Positions 4,459 to 38,661 of a stretch of 64,000 nucleotides of DNA are shown here, piece after piece. Location: positions 2,368 through 66,367 of the forward strand of contig CAVPNQ010000096.1 of the NCBI GenBank assembly GCA_963706735.1, read 5' to 3'. Within the stretch, counting starts at the first letter, position 1. Every line of letters starts with the position of its first letter. The DNA is from an uncultured Planctomycetia bacterium (lineage in GTDB: Bacteria > Planctomycetota > MHYJ01 > WSZJ01). Position numbers and translations under genes: made by a program. The notes beneath the pieces were generated by a model, which was not told the origin of the DNA, made no database searches, and saw only the letters and a program-made list of their open reading frames with translations.

Positions 4459-5450
4459 GCCGGAGGCTCGCCCTTCCCCTTGAAAAAACCGGCCGCCCCT
4501 TCGCGCGCCGCCAGCGCCACCCCCAGCCCCACGATCAGCGCGTCCGACAGCCTCTGCACCGCCGCGTACGCCGCCGCTTCCGGCGCCCCGATCCCGATCA
4601 GCGAGAACGTCCAGACGACGCCGCTCTCGAACACGCCGAGCCCCCCGGGCGTGACGTGGAACGCCAGCACTACCTGAGTCATAACGAAGATGAGTGCCAT
4701 CTCGTCGAAAGGCGTCGCCCGGCCGAGAAAGTGGAAGAACACAAGCGGCTTCAGCACCACCAACGCGAGCGGCCCGCCGGTGAGCAGAAGAGCTGCCCCG
4801 AAGGCCGCCCGGTGGTCGCGGAATGTCTCCTGGATCTTCCCCTCGGTGTCCGCAGCCCACGCGCGGAGCCGCTCACCGCGCTTTCCCAGCACCCGCAACA
4901 CCCCGGACGCCAGTGGCCACCTCAGGACAAACGCGGCGAAGACCACGAGGAACGCCACGAGGAGGCCTGCGGCGACTCCGGTGGCCGTCCATTTCAGCCC
5001 GCGCGGCAGGTCGAACCGCCAGACCATCGTGGCGGTGCAGACCAGGATGGCGACGAGGAACCCCGTGAACTCGGCGAATTTGTTCGAAATGACCGTCGCC
5101 GCGACGTCGCGCGAGGGTAACCCGAAGCGCCGGCTAATGTGCCAGATCCGCAGGGGTTCGCCGCCGAGGTACATCGAGGGGGCGAGGTAGGCGAGGGAAT
5201 TGCCCATGAGGAACGATGCCAGGGTGGCCCGGAAGGGGATCTTCCAGCCCCTGGAGCGCAGCAGGGCGTGCCAGCCGACCGCCTGGAGCGCGAGGATGAG
5301 AAACGACCAGCCCGCGAAGGTCGCCACGCCGCCGGGACCGATGCGCTTGAGCACGGCCCGGGTTGCAGGCCAGTCCAGGCGCGTGGCCAGGAATGCCAGC
5401 AGCCCGAGAGCCAGAAGGACCGACAGGACTGCGAGGAGGCGCTTGCGCAT
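4455..5450 (-). CDS. flippase-like / lysylphosphatidylglycerol-synthase TM-region family (UPF0104) membrane protein
   Basis: 331 aa and polytopic. The N-terminal pattern RLLAVLSVLLALGLLAFLATRLDW...LLRSRGWKIPF is typical of the UPF0104/LPG_synthase_TM family. Confidence 0.6.
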   Translation of the reverse strand: MRKRLLAVLSVLLALGLLAFLATRLDWPATRAVLKRIGPGGVATFAGWSFLILALQAVGWHALLRSRGWKIPFRATLASFLMGNSLAYLAPSMYLGGEPLRIWHISRRFGLPSRDVAATVISNKFAEFTGFLVAILVCTATMVWRFDLPRGLKWTATGVAAGLLVAFLVVFAAFVLRWPLASGVLRVLGKRGERLRAWAADTEGKIQETFRDHRAAFGAALLLTGGPLALVVLKPLVFFHFLGRATPFDEMALIFVMTQVVLAFHVTPGGLGVFESGVVWTFSLIGIGAPEAAAYAAVQRLSDALIVGLGVALAAREGAAGFFKGKGEPPA

Positions 5451-5630
5451 GGGTGGGGCCTGGGGCCAGTTCCGAGCGGCCAGCGGCCGGCGGCCAGTGT
5501 ACGACGCGCGAGGAGCCGGGTGGCATGTTCGAGTCCTGGCCGCTCGCCGCTGGCCGCTGGTGACTGGTTACAAAAAAACCGGGGGCCACGTTTGGCCCCC
5601 GGCTCCGGTTACGCTTTCTCGCCCGCAGTC

Positions 5631-6722
5631 CTAGCTGATCAACGGCACTCCGCCCGCCTTGCCGGCCTTCGGCGCCGGGGCCGCGGCCTCGCCGCCGCCC
5701 GCCGCCTTGCGCTTCTTCTCTTCCGAGATCGCCGCAATCAGCGCGCCCGCCGCAACCGCCTTCAGCGGGTCCTTCGCATGACGCACGCCCTTGACCGGGA
5801 TCGGAAGACCGATCTCGCGCAGGCAATTCTTGAAGCGGTCCACGAACCCCGGGGGCTTGCTCGTTCCGCCGGCGATCACGATCTCGACAGGCTCGTCGAT
5901 CGTGGCGTTGGCGGCCTTGAGCTGCTGGCCGATGTTCGTGATGACGTAACGGATCAGGTCCTCGTAGTAAATCTCGAGCGCGACCATGATCTGGTCCGTC
6001 GGGTCGATCCTGTCGAAGTTCAGGTACTTCTCCTTGTGGCTCTGCACCTTCGACACCGGCACGCTCCTCACCTTCGCCACCTGCCGGTCGATCCAGTCGC
6101 CCGAACGCCCGCAGGAGAACTCAAGCAGCTTCTTCGCGCGCCACGACGCCGCGAGGTTCACCATGCCCGCGCCCCACGAAATCGCGATGCCCGTGAACGG
6201 CAGCACCTCGTTGTTGATCGTGACCGTCGGGTTCTCGCTGTAGATGATGCACATGGCTTCGTTAATACACTTCACGTCGTACCCGAGCTTCTTGAGGAAC
6301 CGCTCGAGCACCATCCGGTGGAACGTGACGTCGAATTCGGCGTCGATCGGGTTGGCGGGCATCGTCGCGCAGATGACCTCGCCCGGGTAGCTCGGCTTGC
6401 CCACCACGGCCTCGAGAAGAACTTCCATCATGCTGATGGCTTCTTCCTCGCCGGGGTTCAACACGCCCTTCGCCATCGGGCGGCGATAGTCCTTCTGGTT
6501 TCCCGTCACCATCGAGAACTTGAGAGCGTCCTCGCCGACGACGTAGATCTGCTCGCCCTTGATGATGTAGAAGGCGCCGGCCTTCGTGAGCATGTCTTCC
6601 GCGAAGTCCTCGTTGGGCATCGAGAAGAACGCATCACGTTCCATCGTGAACACTTCCTTGCCGTCCTTGAGCTCCGCTCCCACGAGGAAGCACGTCCCGA
6701 TGTCGACTCCCTTAGCGCACAT
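5631..6722 (-). CDS. actin-fold (ASKHA) ATPase, divergent actin/ParM/MreB-like protein with a Lys/Ala/Gly-rich tail
   Basis: Phosphate-1-like GVDIGTCFLV at the N-terminus, phosphate-2-like ISWGAGMVN, adenosine motif IAGGTSKPPGF. The C-terminal tail is EEKKRKAAGGGEAAAPAPKAGKAGG. An SD-like aaagggg lies upstream. Confidence 0.65.
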   Translation of the reverse strand: MCAKGVDIGTCFLVGAELKDGKEVFTMERDAFFSMPNEDFAEDMLTKAGAFYIIKGEQIYVVGEDALKFSMVTGNQKDYRRPMAKGVLNPGEEEAISMMEVLLEAVVGKPSYPGEVICATMPANPIDAEFDVTFHRMVLERFLKKLGYDVKCINEAMCIIYSENPTVTINNEVLPFTGIAISWGAGMVNLAASWRAKKLLEFSCGRSGDWIDRQVAKVRSVPVSKVQSHKEKYLNFDRIDPTDQIMVALEIYYEDLIRYVITNIGQQLKAANATIDEPVEIVIAGGTSKPPGFVDRFKNCLREIGLPIPVKGVRHAKDPLKAVAAGALIAAISEEKKRKAAGGGEAAAPAPKAGKAGGVPLIS

Positions 6723-6799
6723 TCCGGCCCCTTTCTACCAGATGGTGATCAATGTGCCGTGGCAGGGCGGCCGTGCCGCCCCGCGAGGCCCTCTGTTTG

Positions 6800-7621
6800 T
6801 TAGTCGATTCCGCCGAGCAGGTCGGCCATGCCGCCTGCGTCGCCTTCGCCCGCCGTCTGCTTGCCGATCTTCTCGAAGTTCGCCGTCAGCTCGTTCTCCT
6901 TCGACTCAAGCAGCTTGAGGCGGGCCTTGATTTCGACCTCGGTGAGCCGGATGCGCTCGTTGGCCCCGCTGTCCATGCTGCCGTCGCCCAGCGCCTGGCG
7001 CGGTCCCGCCGCCACCATGCCGCTGAGGAGGCCCTTGAATTCCTTGAGAAGCGTGTCGCGGAACTCGTTGAACTGCGTGAGGACGGCCTGGGACCGCTGG
7101 CGTTCCTCCAGCACCGCCTTGCGCAGCTCCAGCACCTCGCGCTTGATCAGCGTCTTCTCGTCCTTCTCCTTGTCGAAGAACGACGACCGCAGCTTGTCGA
7201 ATTCCTTCTTCAGCCACCCGTTGTCGCCGTCCATCGTCTGGATCAGCTTCTTGAGGTCGTCGAAGTCCGATCGGATCTGCTCGACATCCTTCGAGCCCGC
7301 AAGCACGGTCCGCAACTCGTTGAGCGCCTTGATCACGGTGTCCTTGTCCGGCGATTTCAGGATCACCTGCCTCAACTCCTCGATCCGCGACTTGATCTCG
7401 CTCCGGGTCTCCTCCTTCACGAGCACCGCTTCGTTCGAGCCGGGCTCCGACTTCTTCACGTTCTGGAGGTACCCTTCTTCAAGCGCGAGCTTGAGCTGCC
7501 TGGACTGCTCGACGCGCTCCCGCCCGATCTTGTCCAGGTCGAAGTAGTCCTTGGCGGGGATCTTGACCTTGAGGTCTTCGATCTGTATCGAGCCGCGCAG
7601 GACGTTCTTGACGATCCACAT
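6800..7621 (-). CDS. coiled-coil protein, upstream partner of the actin-like ATPase
   Basis: 273 aa. A short N-terminal domain is followed by about 200 aa of heptad-like, charged, K/E/L-rich sequence. SD ggaga upstream; same strand, 77 nt upstream of the actin-like gene. Confidence 0.6.
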   Translation of the reverse strand: MWIVKNVLRGSIQIEDLKVKIPAKDYFDLDKIGRERVEQSRQLKLALEEGYLQNVKKSEPGSNEAVLVKEETRSEIKSRIEELRQVILKSPDKDTVIKALNELRTVLAGSKDVEQIRSDFDDLKKLIQTMDGDNGWLKKEFDKLRSSFFDKEKDEKTLIKREVLELRKAVLEERQRSQAVLTQFNEFRDTLLKEFKGLLSGMVAAGPRQALGDGSMDSGANERIRLTEVEIKARLKLLESKENELTANFEKIGKQTAGEGDAGGMADLLGGID

Positions 7622-7765
7622 ACCTTGAAATCTCCGGTATTTGGCCGGGACCGGGCGTCCCAGGGGTAGGTTGAGTTTTGTACCCCGCGCGTGGCCCCCG
7701 AGTCAAATGCTTTTGGCCAGGCCGGGCGTGGGAAGCGGTTCGGAGGGGAAAATTACGCCTTCCTG

Positions 7766-7795
7766 CGGACCCCGCGACCGGCGCACCGGGGTCCG
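7766..7795 (-). terminator. GC-rich hairpin downstream of tRNA-Ala
   Basis: cggaccccg / cggggtccg 9-bp stem with a 12-nt loop, about 35 nt 3' of the tRNA on the minus strand. No clear U-tract. Confidence 0.35.
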
Positions 7796-7829
7796 GCCAG
7801 CCAGAACGAATGCCTTCGGCGCACCTGAA

Positions 7830-7902
<73 letters not shown>

Positions 7903-8092
7903 GTCCGGGTGAGCCGAAGGAGGCGGGAGGATAGCGATGTGTTCCCGGACCGTCAAGGTTGCGCACTCCACCCCCTCGCCCCGGCGGCCGGGACAGGGGC
8001 TTCGAAAACAAAACACCGGACCGCAGCGGCCCCCCCGCGACAAAAAAACGGGGCCCCTTCGGTTGAAGGGGACCCCGTCGCAAGTTCCGCCG

Positions 8093-8542
8093 CTACTCGA
8101 TCGTGACCTTCGTCGCCACCCCGACCTTTGTCAGCGCGTACACGCTCAGGCGCCCCAGGCTCGTCCCGGCCGCCACCATCTTGTCGATGATCGCCTGCAC
8201 CCGGTCTTTCGACCGCGCCAGCGAAAGCTTCCGCCCGACCTTCACCAGGAACGCCCCGCCGCCTGCCGCCTTGCGCCCCGATCCCGGAGGACGCCCCGGT
8301 CCGCGCCCCTTCTTGCCGGCCTTCTTGCGCTTGCCGGCTTTCTTCCGGGCAGGCTTCGCCAGGTCCGGTCGCACCGCGTTGATCAGCTCCGAGAGCTTGG
8401 GCATGAACAGCCCCTGCCCGAATTCGTGCTTCACCGCCTTCTGGATCTCCCGGAACTTCACCTTCGAAGCCTCGGTGATGCTGGTCAGGTGCTTCCCGAG
8501 GAAATCCTTCACCTTGTCGAAGTCCAGCGTGCTGGCCGCCAT
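8093..8542 (-). CDS. small basic protein with an AT-hook-like KRKKAGKKGRGPGRPPGSGRK segment (hypothetical, possibly DNA-binding)
   Basis: 149 aa. A strong SD (aggagg) lies 6 nt upstream of the ATG. The central Lys/Arg/Gly/Pro tract resembles AT-hook GRP cores. Lies between two tRNA genes. Confidence 0.6.
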   Translation of the reverse strand: MAASTLDFDKVKDFLGKHLTSITEASKVKFREIQKAVKHEFGQGLFMPKLSELINAVRPDLAKPARKKAGKRKKAGKKGRGPGRPPGSGRKAAGGGAFLVKVGRKLSLARSKDRVQAIIDKMVAAGTSLGRLSVYALTKVGVATKVTIE

Positions 8543-8713: not shown

Positions 8714-8856
8714 CATCCGGAGGCTGGAAGACGCGGGGTGGAGGCGAGCCGTGGGGAGGGGCGGCGGCGCGAACAAGGCGTCCCCGGGATCAAGCCCCCG
8801 CCGCCGCCGCCCTTCCCCCGGCGACCCTCCACCCCGCGTCTTCCAGCCTCCGGATG
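8714..8856. repeat. perfect 31-bp inverted repeat (long hairpin) abutting the 3' end of tRNA-Val
   Basis: 8714-8744 catccggaggctggaagacgcggggtggagg is the exact reverse complement of 8826-8856. The 81-nt spacer is itself GC-rich and partly self-complementary (ggggaggggcggcggcg / cgccgccgccgcccttcccc). Confidence 0.85.
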
Positions 8857-8928
8857 GGCGGCAGAGGATTTGAACCTCTGACCTCCTGCGTGTCGAGCAG
8901 GCGTTCTAGCCAGCTGAACTAGCCGCCC
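8855..8928 (-). tRNA. tRNA-Val (anticodon GAC)
   Basis: The reverse complement folds as GGGCGGC-TA-GTTC-AGCTGGCTA-GAAC-G-CCTGC-TCGACAC-GCAGG-AGGTC-AGAGG-TTCAAAT-CCTCT-GCCGCCC-A. Confidence 0.9.
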
Positions 8929-8967: not shown

Positions 8968-9876
8968 TCAAACGACCTCCGTCGAAGCGATGACCTTGAG
9001 CAGTTTGTCGCCGTAGCGGCGCAGCAGCGAGGGGGGGAACCCGGCCGCGCGCAGTTCCGCGTCCGTCGTCGGGTTCTTCTCGGCGATGGTGCCCATCATC
9101 CTGTTGCCGACGCTCATGAGAAGCGCAATGTGCCCCTTGTTGGCCATCTCGGTGCGCCAGTCCAGCAGCGCCCGGAGGCGCGCCCGGGCTTTCTTGTCCC
9201 GGTTCCGCCGCGAAAACCCTTCCTCGTACGGATGCGCCTTTGGCGGCTCGTAGGCTTTCACCGACGCCAGCATCGCCTTGATCCCCTCGCGCACCGCGTC
9301 GGTCTTGCCCGCCGCGGCGACGCGCTCGCCGAGCACGCGTGCGATTCCCGGGAGGACCCATGCGTCCAGCGCCCCGTACTTGAATTGCCCAGGGGACAAG
9401 GGCCGGACCCGCCAGTTCGACTGCTGGCTCCCCTTGGTCATCGTCACCATCAGGCATTCCCGCGCCAGCTCGCGCAGGTTCGGGCTCGGGAACGCCAGCA
9501 CCTGCGCCGCCACCAGCGTGTCGAAAACATTCTCCGCCAGGATCCCGTTCACCCGCTTGAGCACCGCCAGGTCCCCGATCCCTCCGTGAACGACGAGCAC
9601 ATGAAGCGGGCTCGCGTACAGCGCTTCGATGATCGGCTTGTACTCGAACGCCAGCGAGTCGATCAGCCACGCTTCTTTCCCGTCCGAGATCTGGATGAGG
9701 GCGATCTCGCAGTGGTGCTGGCCCGTGAGCGTGGTCTCGATGTCGAGCCCCCAGGGCTCCTGTCGGGCGATGATGCGCTCGCGGAGGCGCTCGCCCGACT
9801 CCGGGTCGGAGACCCAGTGGATGGGGAAGGGAAGGGTTTCCTTGAAGGATTCGGGGGGGGGAAAGGGGGTGGGCAC
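8968..9876 (-). CDS. rnd: ribonuclease D (DEDD 3'-5' exonuclease plus HRDC-like C-terminus)
   Basis: Exo I motif WGLDIETT, then DTLVAAQVL and YGALDAWVL motifs. The C-terminal region resembles HRDC (LLDWRTEMA...IAEKNPTTDAELRA). Confidence 0.8.
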   Translation of the reverse strand: MPTPFPPPESFKETLPFPIHWVSDPESGERLRERIIARQEPWGLDIETTLTGQHHCEIALIQISDGKEAWLIDSLAFEYKPIIEALYASPLHVLVVHGGIGDLAVLKRVNGILAENVFDTLVAAQVLAFPSPNLRELARECLMVTMTKGSQQSNWRVRPLSPGQFKYGALDAWVLPGIARVLGERVAAAGKTDAVREGIKAMLASVKAYEPPKAHPYEEGFSRRNRDKKARARLRALLDWRTEMANKGHIALLMSVGNRMMGTIAEKNPTTDAELRAAGFPPSLLRRYGDKLLKVIASTEVV

Positions 9877-38470: not shown

Positions 38471-38558
38471 GCGTGCATGGCGGAATCGGCATACGCAGCG
38501 GTCTTTAAAACCGCGGCTCCTTGGCGGGAGATTGAGGGTTCGACTCCCTCTGCACGCA
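38471..38558 (+). tRNA. class II (Leu-type) tRNA with anticodon UUA, a predicted ochre (UAA) suppressor
   Basis: Manual fold: GCGTGCA-TG-GCG-GAATCGGCATA-CGC-A-GCGGT-CTTTAAA-ACCGC, a variable arm of about 18 nt, then GAGGG-TTCGACT-CCCTC-TGCACGC-A. The anticodon is positions 38505-38507 (TTA). The D-arm is near-identical to bacterial tRNA-Leu, and the discriminator is A. Confidence 0.7.
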
Positions 38559-38566
38559 TCGAGGTT

Positions 38567-38661
38567 GCTGGCATGGCGGAATTAGCAGACGCAGCCGACT
38601 TGGGATCGGCGGGGGTATCCTTGACCGGGGCCCCGTACGGGTGCAAGTCCCGTCGTCAGCA
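38567..38661 (+). tRNA. atypical 95-nt Leu-type tRNA-like gene with anticodon UGG (possibly a pseudogene or non-canonical tRNA)
   Basis: Fold: GCTGGCA-TG-GCG-GAATTAGCAGA-CGC-A-GCCGA-CTTGGGA-TCGGC, a 26-nt variable region, then ACGGG-TGCAAGT-CCCGT-CGTCAGC-A. The acceptor has 6/7 pairs, the T-loop has G at position 55, and the variable region is over-long. The flanks cgaggt/acctcg extend the stem and are followed by cttttt. Confidence 0.45.

Follow-up and report, generated by a model that had tools for sequence, protein, structure and literature searches.

A volactin-family actin and its co-inherited upstream partner in an uncultured member of the Planctomycetota

The window analysed here is a 64,000-nucleotide (nt) stretch of contig CAVPNQ010000096.1 from an uncultured Planctomycetia bacterium. 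On its minus strand it carries two neighbouring genes, the first encoding a 273-amino-acid (aa) helical protein and the second a 363-aa actin-like protein. The question raised by this locus is to which kind of actin the second protein belongs, and whether the product of the upstream gene, hereafter the partner, works together with it. The original prediction, made from the DNA letters alone, had paired a divergent actin-fold ATPase with a coiled-coil adaptor and proposed a lineage-specific cytoskeletal element. In the analysis described below the actin proved to be a clear member of the Volactin family (PF25216), and its gene was found together with that of the partner far more often than chance would allow. 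On balance we favour the reading that the pair is a chromosomal filament-plus-adaptor module, in which a volactin-type, ATP-dependent filament would be served by a dedicated elongated partner acting via two conserved ends.

The actin-like protein is a volactin

Pfam profile PF25216 matched residues 3-331 of the 363-aa protein over profile positions 2-321 of 321, with 251.3 bits against a cut-off of 35 (E 2.1e-74). Exactly one PF25216 gene is present in the genome of the window. By tblastn, haloarchaeal volactins from Natrinema, Haloarcula and Halogeometricum were 38-40% identical to the protein over 88% of its length (E 2e-64 to 2e-72). These proteins, which are encoded on megaplasmids, scored 437-466 bits on PF25216, and the PF25216 search of the Haloferax volcanii genome, included as a control, was over the cut-off as well. 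Among the 301 Planctomycetota genomes sampled, 114 contained a match over the cut-off. Thus the protein, which had been left as an unclassified divergent ATPase, belongs to a named family that is also found in haloarchaea. Volactin (VolA, HVO_2015) of H. volcanii forms dynamic filaments in vivo, as observed with VolA-msfGFP, and is required for the timely transition from rods to disks; its dynamics were compared to those of ParM (Schiller et al., 2024, PMC10869688). The related haloarchaeal protein salactin affects DNA partitioning (PMC10746226).

The nucleotide-binding motifs that had been read from the sequence are present: GVDIGTCFLV at residues 5-14 (phosphate-1), ISWGAGMVN (phosphate-2) and IAGGTSKPPGF (adenosine). 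In alignments with archaeal volactins, DIGT, the catalytic-Glu region NEA, GISxGAGM, GGDWID and GGTS fall together. The phosphate-2 motif had been called degenerate for want of its usual Asp. This description has to be revised, because the haloarchaeal volactins have GISFGAGMTN, which is likewise Asp-free; the absence of the Asp is a family trait.

The AlphaFold (AF2) model of the actin had a mean predicted local distance difference test score (pLDDT) of 90.6 and a predicted template modelling score of 0.87. When it was compared with solved structures by Foldseek, the top 50 matches were MreB, BeeR, FtsA, crenactin, actin and actin-related proteins (Arps), and no Hsp70, sugar kinase or EutJ was among them. 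The nearest solved fold was that of MreB (Foldseek E 1e-14, template modelling score ~0.6), at a sequence identity to MreB structures of ~15%. A substrate-binding domain is not present in the protein. At E <= 1, neither the MreB_Mbl nor the ParM/StbA-family profile of Pfam matched it. The NCBIfam model for MamK gave 27.3 bits (cut-off 400) over residues 59-216 only, and the salactin model of NCBIfam was sub-threshold. In the Pfam and NCBIfam scans the sole match to a kinase or Hsp70 family was BglK with 13.6 bits (cut-off 550), and a sequence search against PDB chains returned nothing meaningful. The original prediction is upheld in that the protein is not an MreB, FtsA, ParM, MamK, PilM or DnaK and has the fold of the filament-forming actins.

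Two other candidates were rejected. Replacement of MreB by the volactin-type actin does not apply, as a genuine MreB (447.8 bits) is encoded elsewhere in the genome of the window. The predatory planctomycete Ca. Uab amorphum also has an actin-like protein, but this one is a homologue of lokiactin and has no relationship to the actin of the window. FtsZ was not found in the genome of the window; FtsZ_C was also absent from 23/23 of the genomes with a type-B actin (see below), with 13/14 controls positive. Absence of FtsZ is usual for the phylum and hence does not discriminate.

To place the protein within its family, a tree of 58 sequences was rooted on the genome's own MreB. It contained two planctomycete clades, labelled type A (31 rows) and type B (21 rows) for this analysis, each with an SH-aLRT support of 100, and the actin of the window fell inside type B. 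The haloarchaeal volactins occupied short branches in the unresolved centre of the tree, and two Planctomycetaceae proteins sat on very long ones. Type-B actins are distinguished by 7 additional residues ahead of phosphate-2 and by their C-terminal tail. In the survey of the phylum the type-B actin and its partner were present together in 11 family-level groups. The earlier term 'lineage-specific' is suitable for the type-B actin with this partner subfamily, not for the actin family as a whole.

Volactin-like genes were also seen outside these clades. Among cultured Planctomycetaceae, Polystyrenella longa (Pla110_03660) and other complete genomes of the same family-level group have a very divergent member, which scores 320 bits on the Pfam model yet is only ~22% identical to types A and B and is named MreB (rod shape-determining protein) in its source; a search with this protein returned six close relatives and no archaeal sequences. 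The uncultured huge phages LR745208.1 (485 kb) and LR756511.1 (595 kb) encode a volactin-like actin that is 31-32% identical over 88% of the window protein, and the genes upstream of it gave no match to the type-B partner profile.

The C-terminus of the window actin is a Lys/Ala/Gly tail, as had been noted (...EEKKRKAAGGGEAAAPAPKAGKAGGVPLIS), with a pLDDT <55 from about residue 341 and an isoelectric point (pI) of 9.8. Across 120 homologues an S-x-EKKK patch and a lineage-specific terminal peptide were observed. In all type-B actins the basic patch follows the last core helix and is itself followed by a Pro/Ala-rich disordered linker and the terminal peptide, which is ...PDVIDIEAGV in most, ...DIEIETEI or a basic end in others and [VI]PL[IV]S in the genus of the window. 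The latter end is kept in a relative of 78% identity (P0003) despite a quite different linker. Judged from these alignments, the terminal peptide bears the signature of a short linear motif. Its type did not correlate cleanly with the neighbouring TPR genes in the loci compared, where high-GC antisense open reading frames (ORFs) confounded ORF picking.

The partner and its genetic coupling to the actin

In 20 of the 21 type-B loci examined, the partner gene lay directly upstream of the actin gene on the same strand. A profile of the partner matched 25 of the 301 Planctomycetota genomes, including 23/23 of those with a type-B actin; in 22 of these 23 it was adjacent to the actin on the same strand. 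Of the two additional matches one was a fragment at a contig end and the other covered the N-terminal domain only. In genome G250 the partner is kept on another contig than the actin. When one genome per species (185,579 species) was scanned with a single peptide pattern, which leads to an undercount, 28 loci were obtained, all from uncultured metagenome-assembled genomes (MAGs). They were labelled Planctomycetota, Planctomycetia or Ca. Brocadiia, except for one 'uncultured bacterium'. In 26 loci the contig extends far enough to be informative, and in 24 of these the actin was directly downstream of the partner. In the remaining two the genes are separated, and one of these MAGs, GCA_050249295.1, keeps both on different contigs. 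The expectation that the gene pair would be conserved together was thus confirmed.

An exhaustive search of 1.84 billion representatives with a hidden Markov model yielded 286 partner cluster representatives. These form three subfamilies (MWIVKN...ADLLSNL, MxWIIQS...LDALDELGI and MFFIVNKTK...DELENLL), all of which keep the head and the terminal peptide. Seven distant representatives were checked and in five a volactin-type gene was found 11-14 nt downstream; four of these genes pass the Pfam cut-off and the fifth is a 75-aa fragment at 21 bits. The pairing of partner and actin is far beyond chance. Since it recurs at a large evolutionary distance, it would be hard to explain without a functional link between the two proteins.

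The contigs with distant partners deserve a separate description. On the metagenomic contigs L100, L101-L103, L094 and L097, partners ending in ...DELENLL or ...LDALDELGI are followed after 12-14 nt by a Pfam Volactin gene. L101 and L094 show dense, small same-strand genes beside a PhoH-like gene, and L097 carries a gene of the polyA-polymerase family and a NucS-like gene. None of seven L101 genes tested (the neighbours and the pair) matched a PHROG, so a viral origin is not supported.

With respect to its anatomy, the partner had been described as almost entirely coiled coil after a short N-terminal domain. The short domain and the long helices that follow it, one of 71 residues, were recovered in the AF2 model. 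The long coiled coil itself, however, is an insertion confined to the genus of the window, with long helices in the model and heptad scores of 0.6-0.8. It is missing from most orthologues, which are only ~200 aa long. Conservation across the three subfamilies is concentrated at both ends of the protein, and the middle is variable and helical. The N-terminal domain is recognisable in all three. Its predicted order is four short strands, two helices and a further strand, and of the 12 invariant residues 10 lie within it (W2, N6, D28, L29, D30, R34, A46, G50, L52 and K57). In the C-terminal block R234 and L269 are invariant and L226, A233, G253 and D267 nearly so. The terminal acidic-leucine peptide, ADLLSNL in most partners and MADLLGGID in that of the window, is kept in 62 full-length representatives of the three subfamilies. 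The N-terminal domain is basic (pI 9.4), the C-terminal part is acidic and a hydrophobic or transmembrane (TM) segment is not present.

No family of Pfam or NCBIfam passed its cut-off with the partner. This includes the DNA-binding families, of which only helix-loop-helix (HLH) appeared, with a sub-threshold 18 bits and within the coiled coil. Weak matches to Bacillus HBL (18.9 bits, cut-off 29.1) and NheC (25 bits, cut-off 420) were restricted to the genus-specific helical region (residues 67-147), and NCBI lists one partner fragment as 'alpha-helical pore-forming toxin family protein, partial'. Both the label and the matches are due to the helical insertion that is found in this genus only. 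Scans with PADLOC for defence systems and with PHROGs for phage proteins gave nothing over threshold beyond one phrog of unknown function (E 0.005). Comparison with solved structures, by a fold search with the whole model and by a profile against PDB sequences, returned only generic helical or coiled-coil chance matches. As a side observation, six separate stretches of a 4,325-aa protein (P0261) matched the N-terminal partner profile (positions 16-96), from which it appears that the head domain may also be repeated within a very large protein.

Layout and surroundings of the locus

The two reading frames and the gap between them are as originally read (Table 1). Their start codons coincide with the family-wide N-termini, MAK/MCAKxxDIGT for the actin and MWIVKN for the partner. 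The spacer is 76-81 nt long in six related species, and a consensus scan listed no terminator-like site within it. A hairpin that resembles an intrinsic terminator begins 25 nt past the actin stop codon (fold -32 kcal/mol, z-score -2.7); it was not among the sites listed by the consensus scan. The promoter scan gave no sigma-70-like site before the partner gene. Because of the short spacer and the hairpin with its T7 run after the actin, the pair looks like a bicistronic operon.

Table 1. Coordinates of the features of the locus, numbered from the first letter of the window.
Feature	Position	Strand	Basis
Intrinsic-terminator-like hairpin, GC stem of ~9-12 pairs (fold-dependent) followed by T7	5572-5606	minus	read from sequence
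Actin-like ATPase, 363 aa, Volactin family, type-B clade	5631-6722	minus	ORF, Pfam PF25216
Actin, disordered tail: basic EEKKRK patch, Ala/Pro/Gly linker, terminal peptide VPLIS	5634-5723	minus	AF2, sequence
Spacer between partner and actin, 77 nt, with purine-rich AAAGGGG before the actin ATG	6723-6799	minus	sequence
Partner, 273 aa, undescribed family without Pfam or NCBIfam model	6800-7621	minus	ORF
Partner, conserved C-terminal block, residues 224-273: helix LTEVEIKARLKLLESKENELTANFEKIG, Gly-rich linker, MADLLGGID end	6803-6952	minus	alignment
Partner, genus-specific helical, coiled-coil-like insertion, ~residues 90-180, bounds approximate	7082-7354	minus	alignment, AF2
Partner, N-terminal globular domain, residues 1-57	7451-7621	minus	AF2, pLDDT 86-91
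tRNA-Ala, 208 nt upstream of the pair	7830-7902		
tRNA-Val	8855-8928		
RNase D-like gene (3'-5' exonuclease and HRDC)	8968-9876		Pfam

On one side the pair is flanked by an LPG-synthase-like membrane protein and on the other by a tRNA. ABC-transporter-like ORFs are also in the neighbourhood. At the start of the window, an open-ended ORF of which the C-terminal part is present resembles a tRNA synthetase by a reading of its sequence. Judged by these genes, the context is that of a housekeeping region of the chromosome, in agreement with what had been said about the tRNAs and the RNase D-like gene. The flanking genes vary between the species of the window's genus, which indicates that the pair is a unit independent of its neighbours. 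Many other lineages have it within a co-directional cluster of a small TPR protein, the partner, the actin, a large TPR protein (480-810 aa) and a histidine kinase (HisKA and HATPase_c, in L035, L038, L046 and other type-B loci), as far as the crude ORF calling in neighbouring loci allows this to be read. The cluster is absent in the genus of the window.

Two observations concern the remainder of the window. Between both tRNA genes, at 8093-8542 on the minus strand, a 149-aa protein without family match is encoded that has a Lys/Arg/Gly/Pro-rich middle (KKAGKRKKAGKKGRGPGRPPGSGRK). Further away two tRNAs that resemble each other and have long variable arms lie in tandem on the plus strand, at 38471-38558 and 38567-38661 (56.4 and 38.4 bits, respectively, on the Rfam tRNA model). 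The first has the loop CUUUAAA with anticodon UUA, which would read the UAA stop codon, and is called 'tRNA-Stop' by ARAGORN. The second combines a Pro anticodon (UGG) with a long-arm scaffold, which is unusual for tRNA-Pro. Both have discriminator A and could represent a suppressor and a mis-decoding tRNA.

The proposed module, its alternatives and known systems

The pair can be understood as a filament with its dedicated adaptor. By analogy with the Haloferax volactin in vivo, the actin would most likely bind ATP and assemble into filaments. The partner is probably soluble and elongated and would associate with itself through its helical stalk; as adaptor or regulator it would set the assembly, the anchoring or the cargo of the filament. 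Its working parts would be the N-terminal domain and the extreme C-terminal acidic-leucine peptide, of which one most likely attaches to the actin and the other to a cargo or cellular site. Because the acidic-leucine peptide is constant across the different classes of actin tail peptide, it would recognise something conserved, most simply the core of the actin. The flexible basic tail peptide of the actin (VPLIS in the window's genus) would then probably recruit further, lineage-specific factors.

Several points weigh against this proposal. With type-B actins in only ~8% of the sampled Planctomycetota, a function central to the whole phylum can be ruled out; the carriers are without exception uncultured MAGs. 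Polymerisation would have to be extrapolated from an archaeal relative that is only ~40% identical, and the usual Asp of phosphate-2 is lacking here as throughout the family. Binding of the partner to the actin is suggested by gene linkage and co-occurrence only, and the genes are unlinked in two species-level lineages. Homology was not detected between the partner and DUF7139, the neighbour of the archaeal volactins (hhalign probability 0.1), nor between the type-B and the type-A partner. This means that there is no precedent for the binding mode of the partner.

It has been considered whether the actin positions an organelle or compartment through a coiled-coil adaptor, in the manner of MamK/MamJ or Mad28/Mad25. 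Planctomycetota have complex endomembranes. Actin-like proteins with coiled-coil partners position magnetosomes, Mad28 interacts with the coiled-coil protein Mad25 (PMC12748827), and the window actin has its weak match to the MamK family. That match is, however, far under the cut-off, and linked cargo genes are lacking in the genus of the window, where the flanks are the tRNA and the LPG-synthase-like gene. We consider positioning of this kind unlikely; moreover, it is a special case of the filament-plus-adaptor module and not a true alternative to it.

Segregation of DNA by a type II system (ParMRC- or AlfAB-like) would require the partner to be a ParR-like centromere binder and the actin to move chromosomes or an episome. 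The analogy drawn in the original prediction with ParM/ParR and AlfA/AlfB holds for the two-gene layout of actin and adaptor. It is in line with the ParM-like dynamics of volactin and the effect of salactin on DNA partitioning, and with the basic character of both the N-terminal domain of the partner and the tail of the actin. It does not extend to the features by which such systems are recognised. Iterated or centromere-like repeats were not found upstream of or around the pair; 5300-8100 contained only short, chance-like repeats and 7622-7829 no array. The predicted strand-helix-strand order of the N-terminal domain is not that of a ribbon-helix-helix (RHH) or helix-turn-helix (HTH) domain, and no DNA-binding family matched. 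The order of the genes is partner and then actin, without a ParM/StbA match. In the plasmid collection the only matches to the actin were the haloarchaeal megaplasmids, which carry housekeeping genes, and the context in the window is chromosomal. Finally, the pair is spread over its 11 family-level groups, with many loci lying between TPR and histidine-kinase genes. A role in segregation is therefore improbable, and the module is no plasmid partition system.

Still less probable is a non-polymerising ASKHA ATPase of the chaperone, kinase or EutJ kind with a co-factor, for instance a GrpE-like exchange factor. The missing Asp of phosphate-2 could be taken in this sense, the small strand-rich domain and long helices of the partner are loosely GrpE-like, and filaments have been seen for the archaeal member of H. 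volcanii, not for a bacterial one. Against this, the 50 nearest structural neighbours are all of the MreB, BeeR, FtsA, crenactin, actin and Arp type, the protein is devoid of a substrate-binding domain and the only sequence match of the required sort is that to BglK. In addition, the same phosphate-2 motif is found in the haloarchaeal volactins, whose founding member does form filaments in vivo.

That the two genes are mere neighbours and the helical protein has an unrelated role, e.g. as an alpha-helical pore-forming toxin, could be argued from the HBL/NheC matches, the toxin label of one fragment and the splitting of the pair in two lineages, but those matches are below their cut-offs and lie in an insertion that most orthologues lack, the protein has no hydrophobic segment, and co-occurrence in 23/23 genomes with adjacency in 22/23, and again in distant subfamilies, brings this explanation close to refuted.

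The filament-plus-adaptor module can be extended to a more far-reaching proposal, which we regard as tentative and rather doubtful. The partner would be the first volactin-binding family and would be built like the eukaryotic actin-binding adaptors, with a head, a helical spacer and an acidic-leucine peptide. The tail motif of the actin would bring in lineage-specific factors, among them the TPR proteins and the histidine kinase, and the family would travel with volactins beyond the Planctomycetota, including metagenomic contigs of unknown origin. If this were true, it would show, along with the unrelated partners of the type-A and archaeal members, that volactins are a regulated, adaptor-driven cytoskeleton common to Bacteria and Archaea, possibly shared by the huge phages that carry volactin-like genes.

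The cytoskeletal biology of the Planctomycetota is poorly known. The name volactin dates from 2024, and work on the protein has been confined to one haloarchaeon; the present locus reveals a large bacterial branch of the family, one clade of which has a strictly co-inherited partner of clear modular anatomy. The volactin-binding factors were 'as-yet unknown' to the founding authors (PMC10869688). With two small proteins the regulation and anchoring of volactin filaments become a testable question. Among the papers searched none joins volactin with Planctomycetota, and planctomycete homologues are not discussed in the founding volactin paper (PMC10869688) or in the salactin paper (PMC10746226). 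Thus the actin family is known and named, and for the partner family neither a model nor literature was found; the pair is probably a bacterial filament-plus-adaptor system that has not yet been studied. Database annotations can be corrected, as proteins of both families are presently called 'hypothetical protein', 'FtsA', 'MreB' or 'pore-forming toxin', with one planctomycete homologue already named 'volactin' (NCBI).

Among the known systems, ParM/ParR/parC, AlfA/AlfB and Alp7A/Alp7R resemble the window pair in that the gene of an actin-like ATPase has that of a small, dedicated adaptor beside it. ParR binds the filament subunit by means of a C-terminal peptide, and this model was borrowed here for the terminal peptide of the partner. 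The pair differs from these three systems by the lack of a centromere array, of an RHH or HTH domain, of a plasmid and of a ParM match, and by its reversed gene order; it is also single-copy, chromosomal and distributed over the 11 family-level groups. MamK/MamJ and Mad28/Mad25 likewise comprise a bacterial actin-like protein that positions a structure via coiled-coil or acidic adaptors, and in two-hybrid assays Mad28 binds only the coiled-coil protein Mad25 (PMC12748827). No magnetosome genes lie among the neighbours of the window pair, the only part of the genome considered for mam genes. MreB, with its dedicated binding partner RodZ, has the nearest solved fold and is likewise an actin homologue encoded on the chromosome. 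Unlike RodZ, which has both, the partner of the window possesses neither a TM segment nor an HTH domain.

The type-A actins have a partner of their own. In the type-A loci (L003-L031) a separate upstream gene on the same strand encodes a protein of 230-450 aa with the C-terminal block ...LFS...ESNLxxVEVK...GGVxxxLAKLKxLq. When a profile of these C-termini was run over 3,187 ORFs in search of a docking motif common to the type-A, archaeal and type-B neighbours, an archaeal DUF7139 tail ranked first (E 0.018), and type-B partners gave E 0.17-2 in inconsistent registers. In some cases type-A genes stand in tandem or form part of much longer open frames (up to ~940 aa), which may be fusions.

The closest relative among the studied systems is volactin of Haloferax volcanii. 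The two hosts differ, that of the window being bacterial, and the window protein belongs to a separate, strongly supported clade. Its phosphate-2 is preceded by the 7-residue insertion, and its tail is basic and carries a terminal peptide, whereas the archaeal tail is acidic; the rod-to-disk role is not transferable to the window protein. The upstream proteins are unrelated as well: the partner of the window is soluble and helical and the archaeal neighbour is a 4-TM DUF7139 protein. In three of three haloarchaeal loci (L056 2977-3900, L057 2920-3828 and L058 2797-3696) this DUF7139 protein (PF23600, ~300 aa) is encoded directly upstream of volactin on the same strand. According to its alignment it has a hydrophobic N-terminal half that resembles about four TM segments, an acidic cytoplasmic tail and the conserved end ...GLLxRxRSLF, which make it a candidate membrane anchor for the archaeal volactin. 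In published imaging the archaeal volactin filaments touch the membrane by their tips. The likenesses are the following. The actin of the window belongs to the same Pfam family from end to end, is as similar to the haloarchaeal orthologues as given above, has the same size and fold and is identical in its phosphate-1, phosphate-2 and adenosine motifs; in both hosts, a conserved gene on the same strand lies directly upstream of the volactin gene.

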